A program made the position numbers and the translations under genes. From Escherichia coli 042 (GTDB lineage: Bacteria; Pseudomonadota; Gammaproteobacteria; Enterobacterales; Enterobacteriaceae), in assembly GCF_000027125.1 (NCBI RefSeq), contig NC_017626.1: 64,000 nucleotides of DNA; one strand, given 5' to 3'. Positions 14,120 through 63,462 of this stretch are shown here, one piece after another. Under the pieces are notes generated by a model. The model saw only the letters and a list, made by a program, of their open reading frames with translations. It had not been told where the DNA came from and searched no databases. Positions within the stretch are counted from its first letter, which is position 1; each line of letters begins with the position of its first letter.

Positions 14120-15083
14120 CTTACTGAAAAAACACCACAATCTTGTTAAACATCGTCGGGTTGGACTGATTACGTTGCACTTTCACCACATATTCCAGCT
14201 TATCTATTTGGCTTATCACCTACTCCAGACGCTGGCCATCCTTGACCAGTAGCCAGATATGGCTTTTGTCGCAGTCCTGAATCGGCAGGCAGAGAATGTC
14301 TTCAACGTTAAGAGCGCGACGGGCAAAAGCCCACAAAGGTGAGTCATTACACCCGGATGGTAAACAGGCACTTCCTTGTTGTAGAAGCCGTTATATTGTC
14401 CATAATGTCTGGGTTTTTAATGCATACTGGGTAACAACCGGACGAATCTTCGAATATCACTGGCGCTGCCAGCCGGTTTGAATTCATCTCACAACCCTGC
14501 ATAGAGCGAATCTCCTGCCTGCACGTCACTCCACTCCATGGTATCAACTTCACACTCTTTATCTGCGGCTAGCTTCAGCCACCAGATAAGCATCGACTAT
14601 GAAAGATGAGCCATGACAACATAACGTTGGTAACGCTCTGACGCCTTAATGGAAGATGCCTGCCACCATAGGGAATGTAAACGACTGAAGTGTGGCCTTT
14701 AATGCCGTGAACGGCTCATGGTCTCCTGGCACGGTTGCCGCCCCAACCTGTAACAACATTCCACAGTACAATGTCTGTCAGAGTCAGAGCCTCCCATGCT
14801 TGTTGTAGTAACTCTACCAGTTACGAACATCCTTCCTCAAAATTGTTGTCATATCTCGCATGGAAGAAAAGATCCTGGCTAAGGAGCAACACACAACGTA
14901 TTGCGGAACTTGCATATTTTTCCTGTAACTAGTGTATTACCACATATGGTAATAGCTACCTGTGTGGTTTCGCTGGATAGCAAGGGGATTTATAGACTGG
15001 CCCCCTGAATCTCCAGACAACCAATATCACTTAAATAAGTGATAGTCTTAATACTAGTTTTTAGACTAGTCATTGGAGAGCAG

Positions 15084-15449
15084 ATGATTGATGTCTTAGG
15101 ACCGGAGAAACGCAGACGGCGTACTACACAGGAAAAGATCGCTATTGTTCAGCAGAGTTTTGAACCGGGAATGACGGTCTCCCTTGTTGCCCGGCAACAC
15201 GGTGTGGCAGCCAGCCAGTTATTTCTCTGGCGCAAGCAATACCAGGAGGGAAGTCTTACTGCTGTGGCCGCAGGAGAGCAGGTCGTTCCTGCCTCTGAAC
15301 TTGCTGCTGCCATGAAGCAGATTAAAGAACTCCAGCGCCTGCTCGGCAAAAAAACGATGGAAAATGAACTCCTTAAAGAAGCCGTTGAATACGGGCGTGC
15401 AAAAAAGTGGATAGCGCACGCGCCCTTATTGCCCGGGGATGGGGAGTAA
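15084..15449 (+). CDS. insC: IS2 transposase OrfA (InsC)
   Basis: [26 protein letters not shown]...; supplied ORF starts at an upstream GTG. Confidence 0.9.
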
Positions 15450-16310
15450 GCTTAGTCAGCCGTTGTCTCCGGGTGTCGCGTGCGCAGTTGCACGTAATTC
15501 TCAGACGAACCGATGACTGGAAAGATGGTCGCCGCAGCCGTCACTCAGATGATACGGATGTGCTTCTCCGTATACACCATGTTATCGGAGAGCTGCCCAC
15601 GTATGGTTATCGTCGGGTATGGGCGCTGCTTCGCAGACAGGCCGAACTTGATGGTATGCCTGCGATCAATGCCAAACGTGTTTACCGGATCATGCGACAG
15701 AATGCGCTGTTGCTTGAGCGAAAAACCGCTGTACCGCCATCGAAACGGGCACATACTGGCAAAGTGGCCGTGAAAGAAAGCAATCAACGATGGTGCTCTG
15801 ACGGGTTCGAGTTCCGCTGTGATAACGGAGAAAAACTGCGAGTCACGTTCGCGCTGGACTGCTGTGACCGTGAGGCACTGCACTGGGCAGTCACTACGGG
15901 CGGCTTCGACAGTGAAACAGTACAGGACGTCATGCTGGGAGCGGTGGAACGCCGCTTCGGCAACGAGCTTCCGGCGTCTCCAGTAGAGTGGCTGACGGAT
16001 AATGGTTCATGCTACCGGGCTAATGAAACACGGCAGTTTGCCCGGATGTTGGGGCTTGAACCGAAGAACACGGCGGTGCGGAGTCCGGAGAGTAACGGCA
16101 TAGCAGAGAGCTTCGTGAAAACGATAAAGCGTGACTACATCAGTATCATGCCTAAACCAGACGGGTTAACGGCAGCAAAGAACCTTGCAGAGGCGTTCGA
16201 GCATTATAACGAATGGCATCCGCATAGTGCACTGGGTTATCGCTCGCCACGGGAATATCTGCGGCAGCAGGCCAGTAATGGGTTAAGTGATAACAGGTGT
16301 CTGGAAATAT
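15407..16310 (+). CDS. insD: IS2 transposase OrfB (InsD), 3' end altered by nested IS insertion
   Basis: DDE transposase; native ...RCLEI stop replaced, supplied ORF reads through to 16381 inside the IS66-family element. Confidence 0.8.
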
Positions 16311-16395
16311 GTAAGCGTAAACTGACCGCCGTATGTAGCCATCAGACGAGAATTGGTAACTTAGACGCCCATCTGATATAGACGGACATCTAAGT

Positions 16396-16821
16396 ATGGA
16401 ATTACAGGACTGGCGAAAAGAACCTCGTAAAAACTATTCGAATGAATTCAAACTTCGTATGGTGGAACTGGCATCACAACCTGGAGCTTGTGTTGCACAG
16501 ATTGCACGTGAAAATGGCGTCAATGATAATGTTATTTTCAAATGGCTCAGGCTCTGGCAGAACGAAGGGCGTGTTTCGCGGCGTCTTCCGGTAACGACCT
16601 CTTCTGACACTGGCGTTGAATTATTACCTGTAGAAATAACGCCGGATGAGCAGAAAGAACCTGTGGCGGCCATTGCGCCGTCTTTATCCACTTCCACTCA
16701 GACCAGAGTCAGTGCCAGTTCCTGCAAGGTGGAATTCCGTCACGGTAACATGACGCTGGAAAATCCATCGCCAGAGCTGCTCACGGTGTTGATCCGTGAA
16801 CTGACCGGGAGGGGAAGATGA
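16396..16821 (+). CDS. tnpA: IS66-family TnpA (Orf1)
   Basis: YSNEFKLRMVELASQPGACVAQIARENGVNDNVIFKWL. Confidence 0.85.
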   Translation: MELQDWRKEPRKNYSNEFKLRMVELASQPGACVAQIARENGVNDNVIFKWLRLWQNEGRVSRRLPVTTSSDTGVELLPVEITPDEQKEPVAAIAPSLSTSTQTRVSASSCKVEFRHGNMTLENPSPELLTVLIRELTGRGR

Positions 16822-17168
16822 TCTCACTCCCATCAGGTACCCGTATCTGGCTCGTTGCCGGCGTTACCGATATGCGTAAATCCTTCAACGGACTGGGAGA
16901 ACAGGTACAACATGTGCTGAATGATAATCCCTTCTCCGGTCACCTGTTTATCTTCCGTGGCCGACGGGGTGACACCGTCAAAATTCTTTGGGCTGATGCT
17001 GATGGTCTGTGCCTGTTCACCAAACGCCTGGAGGAAGGCCAGTTTATCTGGCCTGCGGTACGTGACGGCAAGGTATCCATTACCCGCTCGCAACTGGCAA
17101 TGCTCCTCGATAAGCTGGACTGGCGTCAGCCAAAAACATCCAGCCGTAACTCACTGACAATGTTGTAA
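16818..17168 (+). CDS. tnpB: IS66-family TnpB (Orf2)
   Basis: MISLPSGTRIWLVAGVTDMRKSFNGL...; overlaps tnpA stop by 4 bp. Confidence 0.85.
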   Translation: MISLPSGTRIWLVAGVTDMRKSFNGLGEQVQHVLNDNPFSGHLFIFRGRRGDTVKILWADADGLCLFTKRLEEGQFIWPAVRDGKVSITRSQLAMLLDKLDWRQPKTSSRNSLTML

Positions 17169-17198
17169 AAAACTCCTGACCGCATTATAAAAACGGTC

Positions 17199-18812
17199 AT
17201 GAGTCAGAAATACCTCATTCGCATCGCAGAGCTGGAAAGGTTGCTCTCTGAGCAGGCTGAAGCCCTCCGTCAGAAAGACCAGCAACTGAGTCTGGTTGAA
17301 GAGACGGAAGCCTTCCTGCGCTCTGCACTGACACGTGCCGAAGAAAAGATCGAAGAAGATGAACGGGAAATAGAACATCTGCGGGCTCAGATAGAAAAAC
17401 TGCGCCGGATGCTGTTCGGTACCCGTTCTGAAAAACTGCGTCGTGAAGTTGAACTGGCTGAGGCTCTGCTGAAACAACGTGAACAGGACAGCGATCGTTA
17501 CAGTGGGCGGGAAGACGATCCTCAGGTTCCCCGCCAGTTGCGACAGTCGCGCCATCGTCGTCCGTTACCGGCACACCTTCCCCGTGAAATACACCGCCTG
17601 GAGCCAGAAGAAAGCTGTTGCCCGGAGTGTGGCGGTGAGCTGGATTATCTGGGGGAAGTCAGCGCTGAACAGCTGGAACTGGTGAGCAGTGCCCTGAAAG
17701 TGATCCGCACAGAACGGGTAAAAAAAGCCTGTACAAAATGTGACTGTATTGTTGAAGCACCGGCGCCGTCCCGCCCGATAGAGCGTGGTATCGCGGGCCC
17801 CGGATTACTTGCCCGCGTGTTAACGGGAAAATACTGCGAACATCTGCCACTGTATCGTCAGAGTGAAATCTTTGCCCGCCAGGGTGTCGAACTGAGCCGG
17901 GCCTTACTCTCCAACTGGGTTGACGCGTGCTGCCAGTTAATGACACCGGTGAATGATGCCCTGTACCGTTATGTAATGAACACCCGCAAGGTTCACACTG
18001 ATGACACACCGGTAAAGGTACTGGCACCGGGTCAGAAAAAGGCGAAAACAGGGCGTATCTGGACGTATGTCCGGGATGATCGCAATGTGGGTTCGTCATC
18101 TCCTCCAGCGGTCTGGTTCGCGTACTCGCCGAACCGGCAGGGGAAACACCCGGAGCAACACCTCCGCCCCTTCCGGGGTATCCTGCAGGCGGATGCGTTC
18201 ACAGGTTACGACAGGTTGTTCAGTGCAGAACGTGAAGGTGGTGCACTGACAGAAGTTGCGTGCTGGGCCCATGCCCGGCGAAAAATCCACGATGTATACA
18301 TCAGCAGCAAAAGTGCGACGGCAGAAGAAGCCCTGAAGCGAATCAGTGAACTGTACGCCATCGAGGATGAAATACGGGGATTACCGGAGTCAGAGCGTCT
18401 TGCCGTCAGGCAGCAGCGAAGCAAAGTGTTACTGACGTCGCTGCATGAATGGATGGTGGAGAAGAATGGTACGCTGTCGAAAAAATCCAGACTGGGCGAA
18501 GCGTTCAGCTATGTACTGAATCAGTGGGATGCCCTCTGTTATTACAGTGATGACGGTCTGGCGGAGGCGGATAATAATGCTGCGGAAAGAGCGCTTCGTG
18601 CAGTCTGTCTCGGAAAGAAAAACTTTATGTTCTTTGGCAGCGATCACGGCGGCGAGCGTGGAGCACTGTTGTACGGGCTGATCGGCACCTGCCGTCTGAA
18701 CGGTATCGATCCGGAAGCGTATCTGCGCCATATCCTGAGCGTACTGCCGGAATGGCCTTCCAACCGAGTTGATGAACTCCTGCCATGGAACGTAGTACTC
18801 ACCAATAAATAA
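17199..18812 (+). CDS. tnpC: IS66-family transposase TnpC (537 aa)
   Basis: N-terminal coiled coil, CxxC...CxxC zinc motif (CCPECGGEL...CTKCDC), DDE-type core. Confidence 0.85.
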   Translation: MSQKYLIRIAELERLLSEQAEALRQKDQQLSLVEETEAFLRSALTRAEEKIEEDEREIEHLRAQIEKLRRMLFGTRSEKLRREVELAEALLKQREQDSDRYSGREDDPQVPRQLRQSRHRRPLPAHLPREIHRLEPEESCCPECGGELDYLGEVSAEQLELVSSALKVIRTERVKKACTKCDCIVEAPAPSRPIERGIAGPGLLARVLTGKYCEHLPLYRQSEIFARQGVELSRALLSNWVDACCQLMTPVNDALYRYVMNTRKVHTDDTPVKVLAPGQKKAKTGRIWTYVRDDRNVGSSSPPAVWFAYSPNRQGKHPEQHLRPFRGILQADAFTGYDRLFSAEREGGALTEVACWAHARRKIHDVYISSKSATAEEALKRISELYAIEDEIRGLPESERLAVRQQRSKVLLTSLHEWMVEKNGTLSKKSRLGEAFSYVLNQWDALCYYSDDGLAEADNNAAERALRAVCLGKKNFMFFGSDHGGERGALLYGLIGTCRLNGIDPEAYLRHILSVLPEWPSNRVDELLPWNVVLTNK

Positions 18813-19039
18813 GCGTCAATACGGTGCTCCGTTGACGCTTACGGAAATATAGGGGCAAATCCAATTTATTCGCAAGTAAAATGCCTGATAAAATACACGA
18901 ATCTAGTAATCATCAATATTTACTCTGGTCGAATGACGCGTGAAGTGGACGGCCAACAGACGCAGTCAGTGATCTACAGCCTGTTGAATAAAACCCCGGA
19001 TGCTTCCCCCGATTCTGCAAGTAATACTTCGGTTATTTG

Positions 19040-19145
19040 CACTATTTTATCCCTGTTGAATTTGGTTAAGCCGGTGCAGACGTGCCGGGAAACGCACACC
19101 TGAACCGGCACAATAAAATACAATACAACCCCCTGTTACTGGAGA
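19040..19145. repeat. 106-bp repeat, copy 1 (copy 2 at 47474-47579, one mismatch)
   Basis: cactattttatccctgttgaatttggttaagccggtgcagacg...ccccctgttactggaga present at both positions. Confidence 0.8.
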
Positions 19146-44983: not shown

Positions 44984-45221
44984 GTTTATAAGGTACGGAC
45001 AGCAGTATCGCTTAGTTTTTCAAATTCATGTATGTGAACAATATTGGGGTTCCGGCGTAGACCCCCAATGAAAGCGTCACCACGTGAAAACATGCCTGCA
45101 CGGTTTACACGTCATCCCATGGTGGCAGCCGGTTAACTTTCCTGCGCCACCAGTGGAAAAAGGCCATAAGCAGTCCGAACAAAAGTAAGCGTACAGCGAG
45201 GGCCGTATTGACGGGGATGTG

Positions 45222-46607
45222 TTATTCAGCTGGCAGTGCTATGCGCCACGGAAGCAGTTCGCTGACCCGGTTGACCGGCCAGTCTGCTATGACGCCAAGC
45301 ACATGGCGAAGGTAGCTTTCTGGATCCACGTCATTCAGTTTGCACGTCCCGATCAGGCTGTACAGTAGCGCTCCCCGCTCACCACCATGGCCAGAGCCGA
45401 AGAACAGGGTCTTCATCTTTTCACGCAACCAGCTTTCCAGGGATTTCAACAGCGGTTTCGTTTTTCGCTGACGTTCAGCAAGCCGCTGCTCTGCCGGCAT
45501 TCCCCTTATATCCGCCTCTATGGCGTACAACTGACCGATCTGCTCCAGGGCTTCTTCCGTCAGTGCTGACGGGATGCGGACGTGCACATCGTGGATCTTT
45601 CGGCGGGCATGAGCCCAGCAGGCAGCTTCCGTTATCCCACCATTGCGATACAGCTCGTTGAACCCGGCGTACGCATCCGCTTGCAGCACACCGCTGAAGC
45701 AAGCAAGATGAGTCTGCGGATGGATGCCTTTTCTGTCCGGGCTGTAAGCGAACCACACTGCAGGTGCCAACGCTGACCCGGCATTGCGGTCATCACGAAC
45801 ATACGCCCACAACCGCCCGGTCTTCGTCTTCTTATTACCCGGCAGCAGTACCTGGACCGGGGTATCATCGGCATGGAGTTTGCCGTCAGTCATGACATAG
45901 CCATGAAGCGCCTCTTCCAGCGGAGACAGCAGCCGGCAGCATGCATCCACCCAGCCCGACAGCAGTGAACGGCTCAGCTCCACACCTTGCCGGCCGTATA
46001 TTTCTGACTGGCAATACAGCGGGGTGTGCTCTGCATACTTCGAGGTCAGCACGCGGGCCAGCAGCCCCGGTCCGGCGATACCCCGCTCGATGGGCCGCGA
46101 AGGTGCAGGTGCCTGCACGATGGTATCGCACTGAGTACAGGCATGTTTTTCCCGTACCGTCCGGATAACCCGGAAGGCGCTACGCATCAACTCCAGCTGT
46201 TCGGCGGTATCCTCGCCCAGATAGCTCAGTGAACCGCCGCAGTTCGGGCAGCACGGCGCCGCAGGCAACAGTCGCTTTTCGTCACGGGGTAGTGATTCAG
46301 GGAACGGCTTACGGGTGCGGGTCTGACGCAACGGACGCTGTACTGCCGGGTCATACACCCTAACAGTCAGCGTATCGCTCTCTTTCTGAAGCCGGTTCAG
46401 ATCGGCTTCCATTTGTGCGATACGGCGGGAGACTTTTTCGGAACGACTGCCGAAGTTCATCCGGCGGAGTTTATCCAGCTGCGCCTGCAGATGGTCTATT
46501 TCGCGCTCCCGGTTGCTCAGCTTTTCCTGCAGGGCGTGGATCAGCGCTTCCTGTTCGGCCAGGCGCTGTTTCAGCAGGAAGATGTCGTCAGAAGAGATGT
46601 CGTTCAT
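45222..46607 (-). CDS. tnpC: IS66-family transposase TnpC (461 aa, ~76 aa shorter than copy 1)
   Basis: CCPNCGGSL...CTQCDT zinc motif and DDE core; region between ...[11 protein letters not shown] and ...[11 protein letters not shown] is shorter than in copy 1. Confidence 0.8.
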
Positions 46608-46656
46608 AAGCCCGTATTTTACCGGGCTTATTCTGTGACAACCAGGATAAAGAGAT

Positions 46657-47004
46657 TTACAGCATGGTCAGGGAGGTCAGCAGCCGCTTGGGCTGTCGCC
46701 AGTCGATACCTTCCAGCAGCATCGCCAGCTGCGCCTGCGTAAGGAACACTTTGCCATCACGGGCTGACGGCCAGGCGAAGCGCCCACGCTCCAGCCGTTT
46801 GGTCAGGAGGCACAGTCCGTCACCGGTGGACCACAGCAGTTTAACCTGACTGCCGCTGCGGCCCCGGAAAATGAAAATATGGCCGGACATGGGATCGTCT
46901 TTCAGCGCCGTTTGTACTTTCGCAGCCAGGCCGTTGAAGCTATTTCTCATATCGGTGATACCGGCAACCAGCCAAATTTTGGTCCCGGAAGGTAACGGGA
47001 TCAT
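46657..47004 (-). CDS. tnpB: IS66-family TnpB
   Basis: [26 protein letters not shown]... Confidence 0.85.
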
Positions 47005-47381
47005 CGCTTCAGTTCCTGTATCAGCAGAGTCAGGAGCTTTTCGCTGACATTGCCATTGAAGCGGAGCGTCCCGTGCCGGAACGTTACCTCACAGCTGATA
47101 CTGAGGGTTTCCGGGTCCTCTGCGAGCGATTCTGGCTGTTCGGCAGCTGCATCGAGAGTCACAGGAAGTAGCTGGGGGCTCTCTGAAGAAGGTAATAGCA
47201 GCTTTCCCTCGCGCCATTGTTGTCGCCATTTGAACAACAGATTGGCGTTAATGCCATTTTCAAGAGCAAGTTTTGAGATGGATATCCCGGGTTCACAGGA
47301 GGCAGCAACGAGCAGCTGTTTAAATTCGGGAGGATAATTAGGGAAGCCTTTTCGCCTGCCGGGAGTCACATTTTTCTGCAT
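47001..47381 (-). CDS. tnpA: IS66-family TnpA
   Basis: ...PEFKQLLVAASCEPGISISKLALENGINANLLFKWR...; start placed at ATG 47379-47381. Confidence 0.8.
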   Translation of the reverse strand: MQKNVTPGRRKGFPNYPPEFKQLLVAASCEPGISISKLALENGINANLLFKWRQQWREGKLLLPSSESPQLLPVTLDAAAEQPESLAEDPETLSISCEVTFRHGTLRFNGNVSEKLLTLLIQELKR

Positions 47382-47473
47382 ATCTGACACTTTGGTTCCC
47401 ACTACTTATTTGGTGGACACCACTTTGTCTAATTCGTCAGATTCTGACCAGACGGTTCAGGCTGTACGCTTAC

Positions 47474-47579
47474 CACTATTTTATCCCTGTTGAATTTGGT
47501 TAAGCCGGTGCAGACGCGCCGGGAAACGCACACCTGAACCGGCACAATAAAATACAATACAACCCCCTGTTACTGGAGA
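47474..47579. repeat. 106-bp repeat, copy 2 (copy 1 at 19040-19145)
   Basis: Abuts the IS66-family left end at 47473. Confidence 0.8.
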
Positions 47580-62142: not shown

Positions 62143-63048
62143 CTATATTTCCAGACACCTGTTATCACTTAACCCATTACTGGCTTGCTGCCGTAGATAT
62201 TCCCGTGGCGAGCGATAACCCAGTGCACTATGCGGATGCCATTCGTTATAATGCTCGAACGCCTCTGCAAGGTTCTTTGCTGCCGTTAACCCGTCTGGTT
62301 TGGGCATGACACTGATGTAGTCACGCTTTATCGTTTTCACGAAGCTCTCTGCTATGCCGTTACTCTCCGGACTCCGCACCGCCGTGTTCTTCGGTTCAGG
62401 CCCCAACATCCGGGCAAACTGCCGTGTTTCATTAGCCCGGTAGCATGAACCATTATCCGTCAGCCACTCTACTGGAGACGCCGGAAGCTCGTTGCCGAAA
62501 CGGCGTTCCACCGCTCCCAGCATGACGTCCTGTACTGTTTCACTGTTGAAGCCGCCCGTAGTGACCGCCCAGTGCAGTGCCTCACGGTCACAGCAGTCCA
62601 GCGCGAACGTGACTCGCAGTTTTTCTCCGTTATCACAGCGGAACTCGAACCCGTCAGAGCACCATCGCTGATTACTTTCTTTCACAGCCACTCTGCCGGT
62701 ATGTGCCCGTTTCGATGGCGGTACAGCGGGTTTTCGCTCAAGCAACAGCGCATTCTGGCGCATGATCCGGTAAATACGTTTGGCATTGATCGCAGGCATA
62801 CCATCAAGTTCGGCCTGTCTACGAAGCAGCGCCCATACCCGACGATAACCATATGTGGGCAGCTCTCCGATAACATGGTGTATACGGAGAAGCACATCCG
62901 TATCATCTGAGTGACGGCTGCGGCGACCATCTTTCCAGTCATCGGTTCGTCTGAGAATGACGTGCAACTGCGCACGCGACACCCGGAGACAACGGCTGAC
63001 TAAGCTTACTCCCCATCCCCGGGCAATAAGGGCGCGTGCGCTATCCAC
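62143..63048 (-). CDS. insD: IS2 transposase OrfB (InsD, 301 aa)
   Basis: Full-length DDE transposase ending ...RCLEI. Confidence 0.9.
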
Positions 63049-63371
63049 TTTTTTGCACGCCCATATTCAACGGCTTCTTTAAGGAGTTCATTTTCCATCG
63101 TTTTTTTGCCGAGCAGGCGCTGGAGTTCTTTAATCTGCTTCATGGCGGCAGCAAGTTCAGAGGCAGGAACGACCTGTTCTCCTGCGGCCACAGCAGTAAG
63201 ACTTCCCTCCTGGTATTGCTTGCGCCAGAGAAATAACTGGCTGGCTGCCACACCGTGTTGCCGGGCAACAAGGGAGACTGTCATTCCCGGTTCAAAACTC
63301 TGCTGAACAATAGCGATCTTTTCCTGTGTAGTACGCCGTCTGCGTTTCTCCGGTCCTAAGACATCAATCAT
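63006..63371 (-). CDS. insC: IS2 transposase OrfA (InsC)
   Basis: [18 protein letters not shown]... Confidence 0.9.
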
Positions 63372-63462
63372 CTGCTCTCCAATGACTAGTCTAAAAACTA
63401 GTATTAAGACTATCACTTAAATAAGTGATATTGGTTGTTTGGAGATTCAGGGGGCCAGTCTA

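Follow-up and report, generated by a model that had tools for sequence, protein, structure and literature searches.

Identity and gene content of the element

The DNA that we analyzed, referred to here as the window, is a 64,000-nucleotide stretch of the genome of Escherichia coli 042 (NC_017626.1). An IS66-family element lies on its minus strand exactly at positions 45185 to 47473, as had been proposed by a reading made without any database search (the sequence-only reading), and is bounded by perfect 13-bp terminal inverted repeats. The left, tnpA-proximal repeat (47461 to 47473, minus strand) reads exactly GTAAGCGTACAGC and is identical to the end of ISEc8, and the right, tnpC-proximal repeat (45185 to 45197, plus strand) is likewise exact. 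Terminal inverted repeats starting with GTAAGCG are a trait of the IS66 family, as are the consecutive tnpA, tnpB, and tnpC genes with matching protein domains found between them. Two further family traits are missing, namely, an 8-bp target-site duplication at this locus and a complete DDE catalytic domain in TnpC.

The tnpA gene (47001 to 47402, minus strand) encodes 133 amino acids from a GTG codon, while RefSeq annotates a 126-amino-acid form from ATG; its product has a Pfam HTH_Tnp_1 domain (E = 1.9e-11). The tnpB gene (46657 to 47004, minus strand), which has a 4-nt overlap with the tnpA stop, encodes 115 amino acids with a TnpB_IS66 domain (E = 2.7e-38), and tnpC (45222 to 46607, minus strand) encodes 461 amino acids matching LZ_Tnp_IS66, zf-IS66, DDE_Tnp_IS66, and DDE_Tnp_IS66_C. 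Since the published open reading frames of ISEc8 specify 133, 115, and 512 amino acids, with L0013 encoding the 133-amino-acid product (PMC2762410), tnpA and tnpB have kept their full length, and TnpC is 51 residues short.

When aligned to the ISEc8 copy of pO157, the element, which measures 2,289 bp versus 2,442 bp for the full-length form, showed 15 substitutions and a single 153-bp gap, corresponding to 99.3% nucleotide identity over 2,289 aligned bases. Roughly 95% DNA identity is the ISfinder convention for copies of one IS; the window element lies above this figure, and its length departs from that of ISEc8 through the 153-bp deletion alone. It shares with the ISEc8 of O157:H7 (L0013/L0014/L0015, 2,442 bp) the terminal repeats, the tnpA-tnpB-tnpC layout, and the 4-nt tnpA/tnpB overlap, but it lacks nucleotides 2066 to 2218, has five more TnpC substitutions, and has no duplication at its locus. 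A search of 5,426 complete E. coli genomes returned contiguous 2,289-bp matches of 99.5 to 100% identity from E. coli chromosomes by the thousand, together with two-piece matches of 99.3% identity spanning 2,442 bp that were annotated as "IS66-like element ISEc8." The window element is very probably a defective derivative of the cataloged IS66-family element ISEc8.

The five TnpC substitutions are G82V, A162T, R199C, R212S, and D457G, of which R199C alters the conserved PLYRQ motif and D457G the conserved FGSD motif, and the tnpA product carries two amino acid changes relative to the pO157 copy. Across the whole element, we counted nine nonsynonymous and four synonymous substitutions against that copy, a pattern that, in these small numbers, fits relaxed constraint.

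A 153-bp in-frame deletion in tnpC

The segment missing from the window element corresponds to nucleotides 2066 to 2218 of ISEc8 and was lost in frame. In full-length ISEc8, a CCTGT motif opens this segment and a second CCTGT directly follows it, so that a 5-bp direct repeat bounds the deletion; one copy is retained at the deletion junction (45404 to 45409, minus strand), which falls between positions 45409 and 45408. No copy of the missing 153 bp was found elsewhere within the window. The lost residues, 402 to 452 of the 512 in full-length TnpC (SRHSELAKAFAYALNQWPALTYYANDGWVEIDNNIAENALRAVSLGRKNFL; 51 residues), sit toward the C-terminal end of the DDE domain and not in the central region of the protein, where the sequence-only reading had put them.

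That reading had also estimated the loss at about 76 residues. The shortening is real, but the figure of 76 is 537 minus 461, a comparison with the TnpC of the other IS66-family element in the window (copy 1), which we identified as ISEc23 (16311 to 18842; TnpC of 537 amino acids); it adds a natural 25-residue difference between ISEc23 and ISEc8 to the real 51-residue deletion. Copy 1 belongs to the same family and has the same gene order and the same GTAAGCG... ends, and it does have the target duplication ascribed to it, the 8-bp GGAAATAT. However, its TnpC and TnpB are 57% and 68% identical, respectively, to those of the window element, and the length of its TnpC cannot serve as a standard for that of ISEc8. 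The sole nucleotide similarity between the two elements, 75% over 159 bp, also rules out recombination between them.

It could be argued that a short TnpC is natural for this IS66 subgroup and that the element is intact and autonomous, as all three reading frames are open and RefSeq lists the 461-amino-acid product as "IS66 family transposase" without marking it as a pseudogene. This is almost certainly wrong. The alignments to ISEc8 and to the family refute it: the element is 99.3% identical to an ISEc8 with a 512-amino-acid TnpC, its gap is bounded by 5-bp direct repeats, as a deletion would be, and its distant full-length relatives have about 495 to 580 amino acids, with segment 402 to 452 present in all those chosen for alignment (495 to 577 amino acids). 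The reference transposases are thus not naturally short. Judging from these alignments, the short TnpC is the product of a microhomology-bounded internal deletion of ISEc8.

Predicted effect of the deletion on TnpC

The Pfam DDE_Tnp_IS66 match covers profile positions 1 to 222 of 284 in the window TnpC, compared with 1 to 283 in that of full-length ISEc8, so that the last 60 or so positions of the profile are gone with the deletion. A search of 1.84 billion representative proteins, with the TnpC of full-length ISEc8 as the query, supplied relatives, and 47 of these, with 33 to 62% identity to ISEc8 TnpC, were combined with the query and the two TnpC proteins of the window in a 50-sequence alignment. 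D247 was invariant in this alignment, and D311, E438, G447, and N450 were at least 90% conserved. Three of these, E438 in a DNNxxER motif and G447 and N450 in GRKNWLF, fall inside the deletion, which removes six near-invariant residues in total. The leucine zipper, the zinc finger, and the first two aspartates are kept in the 461-amino-acid protein, as is a second conserved glutamate, E364.

In an AlphaFold model of the full-length ISEc8 TnpC (pLDDT 89.9), the strands follow the order of an RNase-H-like core. D247 lies on strand 1 and D311 just beyond strand 4, and a long all-helical insertion precedes the helix (residues 435 to 445) that carries E438; E438 and the GRKN motif both lie on helices behind this insertion. 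Searches of solved structures with the single sequence and with profiles returned no sequence relatives of TnpC, and a literature search found no paper defining the catalytic residues of IS66. From its conservation, its place in the predicted fold, and the usual layout of DDE enzymes, E438 would be the third catalytic acidic residue. With E438 and the GRKN segment deleted, the 461-amino-acid TnpC is predicted to be catalytically dead and should not catalyze transposition, but as it keeps the leucine zipper, the zinc finger, and the first two aspartates, it should still bind DNA and multimerize. Sequence and predicted structure thus argue against autonomous movement of the window element, and the earlier suggestion that it may be non-autonomous appears well supported by the loss of about 60 DDE_Tnp_IS66 positions, E438, and the GRKN motif.

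Distribution among E. coli genomes

Three 80-bp probes were used to count junctions in the 5,426 complete E. coli genomes. The deletion junction occurred in 2,218 genomes at 2,407 places, with at most three per genome and 58 on plasmids, while the junction with a gene encoding a DUF6404 protein, at the right end of the element, was present in 2,169 genomes and the tnpA-end junction in 1,758. The deleted form amounts essentially to a single locus, which about 40% of the complete genomes carry as part of its island. Since its formation, the relic has been passed on by descent or has spread along with this island. We also observed that the tnpA side has been rearranged further in some lineages, for example, in O139:H1 strain P15-25, which has a truncated copy. 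The plasmid copies were considered as a possible ancestral state and rejected as such, since those examined were IS1-captured, further-truncated pieces of the chromosomal DUF6404/phytase module.

The commonest allele of the 461-amino-acid TnpC, taken from strain 2013C-3513, was found as the exact sequence in 11,152 blocks of a large assembly collection. Nine of the 10 distinct neighborhoods returned for this allele were the usual locus, and the other was the chromosomal gene yehR.

Given this prevalence, the shortened protein might be thought to be kept because it is of use, perhaps by inhibiting ISEc8 and related IS66 elements in a trans-dominant manner. Such a protein would be comparable to the truncated transposase derivatives of other elements, and the 461-amino-acid TnpC has the build for it, with LZ_Tnp_IS66 and zf-IS66 intact and the catalytic end gone; moreover, the tnpC frame is open in 41% of complete genomes, and the commonest allele is extremely widespread. 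Still, we regard retention for such a role as very unlikely. The substitution pattern looks relaxed, with nine nonsynonymous and four synonymous changes and conserved motifs struck; the copies are 99.5 to 100% identical, so that an open frame can be explained without selection; linkage to a widespread island accounts for the prevalence; and enterohemorrhagic E. coli (EHEC) genomes with the deleted copy still have many ISEc8-like copies.

A copy of the deleted element in yehR

In strain 10153, the 2,289-bp deleted element splits the chromosomal yehR gene, and the 8 bp on its two sides, GAACGGCA, form a perfect duplication. This copy shares the variants that separate the deleted lineage from the pO157 ISEc8, which extend from nucleotide 86 to 2237. 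The yehR junction was found in 82 genomes, of the O103/O111:H11 type of EHEC, in two of which we inspected the copy and saw the deleted form with the 8-bp duplication. Copies at the usual locus and in yehR are both present in O103 strain RM8385, and in strain 2013C-3513 the usual-locus copy, with the flanks GAACAAAA/CACTATTT, differs from the yehR copy by 1 nucleotide in 2,289. The deleted element was copied from the window locus into yehR, where it is flanked by the usual 8-bp duplication, and its ends are therefore functional.

Gene conversion of a full-length ISEc8 that already resided in yehR would give the same arrangement without transposition of the deleted form, given that homologous IS copies within a genome can exchange sequence and that EHEC genomes hold many ISEc8-like copies. 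It is highly unlikely, because the deleted-lineage variants cover nucleotides 86 to 2237, almost end to end, so that the conversion would have had to span nearly the whole element; the single-nucleotide difference from the usual-locus copy of the same genome also speaks against it.

The deleted TnpC might still be catalytically active and the element autonomous, having moved into yehR unaided. That the deleted form reached a new site and has the usual 8-bp duplication there would agree with this, and the frame is preserved and the conserved E364 retained. We consider it unlikely, however, as about 60 of the 284 DDE profile positions and six near-invariant residues including E438 are lost, the element has stayed in place as a single copy in roughly 2,100 genomes, with no more than three copies anywhere, and the 10 sampled neighborhoods of the commonest allele comprise the usual locus and yehR only. 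Instead, full-length ISEc8 copies of those EHEC genomes would have provided, in trans, the TnpC for the move into yehR. Such mobilization in trans is most likely, being the most economical reading of the event, because the chromosome of strain 10153 has 13 ISEc8-like places (among which there may be partial copies or other members of the IS66 family), deleted copies number at most three per genome, and the deleted form is static in the roughly 2,100 other genomes.

Flanks of the element and the missing duplication

Full-length ISEc8 copies elsewhere are flanked by 8-bp duplications, such as GTAAAGCG and AGACAAAA. The 8-bp sequences outside the ends of the window element, GAACAAAA and CACTATTT, do not form a direct repeat, in agreement with the sequence-only reading. 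The two sides come from unrelated contexts. At the right end of the IS, a 3' remnant of the DUF6404 gene of about 26 codons adjoins the element (45107 to 45184, minus strand) and is marked as partial, without its N terminus, in the RefSeq annotation of ST648; the intact 348-bp gene, found on ColIa-type plasmids, continues unbroken past the junction point, and the rest of it is absent from the window. The left end abuts island-end sequence (47474 to 47579, plus strand), a 99% direct repeat of 19040 to 19145. This sequence is unbroken at 19039/19040 and in O22:H8 strain 154, reading ...GGTTATTTG/A up to the junction point and CACTATTTTATCC... beyond it. Because these uninterrupted copies extend about 60 bases further left of the junction point, the tnpA-side end of the IS is joined about 60 bp inside a sequence that is intact elsewhere.

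A probe joining both flanks detected no genuine empty site in the 5,426 genomes. An apparent one in the old Nissle 1917 assembly CP007799 holds a 166-bp IS stump, and since other Nissle assemblies have the full 2,289 bp, it was taken as an assembly collapse. Reciprocal junctions were sought with probes that joined ...CACTATTT to the right end and the left end to GAACAAAA plus the rest of the DUF6404 gene, and none was found in the same genomes; the best partial match, in STEC316, was an unrelated full-length ISEc8 with the duplication AGACAAAA. Strain 504237 seemed to have a full-length copy at the window locus, but this copy lies at a different site, yhiM-pco.

Elsewhere in the window, another ISEc8 copy has left 82 bp of its left end, standing alone (27046 to 27127, minus strand); this remnant is 100% identical to 47392 to 47473 and lies 18 kb away from the window element in the same orientation. 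The island therefore once held more than one ISEc8 copy. The remnant was examined as the missing recombination partner and rejected, since its flank, AAACAACT, matches neither flank of the element.

One original flank was probably lost in an IS-associated deletion. Two ISEc8 copies in direct orientation may have undergone homologous recombination, or transposition may have made an adjacent deletion; on the sequence data, the two routes appear equally possible. The term "recombined" used in the sequence-only reading is therefore plausible for the flanks, in view of their unrelated contexts and of the lack of an empty site or reciprocal junction in 5,426 genomes, but does not apply to the short TnpC, which is an internal deletion. 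Nor are the two features a joint sign of a recombined copy, as that reading had it: the internal deletion and the absent duplication are independent events. The absent duplication is part of the local history of the locus and not an inability to move, because the same deleted element has a perfect 8-bp duplication in yehR.

Relation to known elements and implications

The window element is a thing of an already known kind, a defective non-autonomous IS relic. Non-autonomous transposon derivatives that arose by internal deletion and are mobilized in trans form an established class, with which it shares intact ends, a crippled transposase gene, and rare appearance at new sites amid ISEc8-like copies. 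Unlike the usual members, it has a small in-frame deletion and still encodes a near-full-length protein, and complementation in trans is its likely route. IS copies with mismatched flanks after an IS-mediated deletion are likewise a textbook phenomenon. In a deletion derivative of the Agrobacterium plasmid pAt15955, recombination of two direct copies left a single IS66 with mismatched 8-bp flanks, each from a different original insertion, much as the two flanks differ here (PMC6778807). However, both parental copies and their duplications were observed in Agrobacterium (PMC6778807), whereas no parental or reciprocal junction of the window element was found in 5,426 genomes.

The window element leaves the understanding of how such elements work unchanged. 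The relic is found in about 41% of complete genomes, and RefSeq labels it "IS66 family transposase" like any other, so that IS censuses and estimates of activity that count this defective copy as a live ISEc8 would overstate the number of active copies. Should the very unlikely inhibitor role hold after all, about 40% of E. coli would retain a 461-amino-acid TnpC that dampens IS proliferation. The element is a clean natural example in three respects. An in-frame deletion bounded by microhomology has taken away what is predicted to be the catalytic glutamate of its IS66-family transposase; its lack of a duplication marks what was probably an old IS-associated deletion in a genomic island; and, although crippled, it was still copied into yehR as a new site in an EHEC lineage, a sign of cross-mobilization.

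The deleted ISEc8 form in sequence annotation and assemblies

The 461-aa TnpC product of the deleted ISEc8 form is annotated in RefSeq as "tnpC: IS66 family transposase," for example, at L002:20867-22252 (from the ST648 chromosome), with neither a pseudogene nor a partial flag, despite its lack of approximately 60 catalytic-domain profile positions. Full-length copies are labeled more specifically, as "ISEc8 family transposase." In the older Nissle 1917 assembly (NZ_CP007799.1, 5166677-5168242), only a 166-bp IS stump lies between the two flanks, and the full 2,289-bp element is present in the newer Nissle assemblies. The stump is thus probably a repeat collapsed during assembly and not the outcome of a genuine excision.

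Flanks of the element and the surrounding island sequences

For the ISEc8 copies in pO157 (L001), in yehR (L007), and at L015 and for the window element, the flanking sequences or target duplications were GTAAAGCG, GAACGGCA, AGACAAAA, and GAACAAAA, the last being the tnpC-end flank of the window element. Three of the four (GAACGGCA, AGACAAAA, and GAACAAAA) resemble one another, which hints that ISEc8 has a target preference and that the DUF6404 side represents the original insertion of the window element, in a sample of flanking sequences far too small for either conclusion. Elsewhere in the window, a solo 82-bp ISEc8 left-end remnant (27046-27127) is identical (100%) to 47392-47473 and has the same orientation. 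Its inner side is cut off and adjoins an IS3-family element, its outer flank is AAACAACT, and an lpxM/msbB-like gene lies next to it.

A 106-bp direct repeat (99% identity) was found at 19040-19145 and 47474-47579, the latter copy starting precisely where it meets the IS. The repeat and 18979-19039 together match the terminal sequence of a related island in O22:H8 strain 154 (L003), where that terminus is joined directly to the chromosomal backbone. The approximately 28-kb segment separating the two copies, which carries acuR, a BCCT transporter gene, an lpxM/msbB-like gene, virK, fecIR, and a phytase-like gene, is absent in that strain. This arrangement may point to two tandem islands with a common end sequence.

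A nested IS pair occupies 14993-18864. Here, ISEc23 (16311-18842), flanked by the duplication GGAAATAT, has entered an IS3-family element at a point about 13 bp into its terminal repeat. The IS3-family element looks IS2-like by its end sequence. The otherwise collinear ST648 chromosome lacks the whole pair. Another copy of the IS3-family element at 14993-16310 lies approximately 46 kb away at 62145-63462, inverted and 98% identical; such a pair could support inversion of the region between them.

ISEc8 insertion in yehR

In 82 complete E. coli genomes of the O103/O111:H11-type EHEC (L007:3001-5289, L014, and L024), an ISEc8 insertion interrupts yehR, a lipoprotein gene on the chromosome. The insert was the deleted form in both genomes whose DNA was read, namely, those of strains 10153 and 2013C-3513. 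The ISEc8 insertion in yehR could be used as a clade marker.
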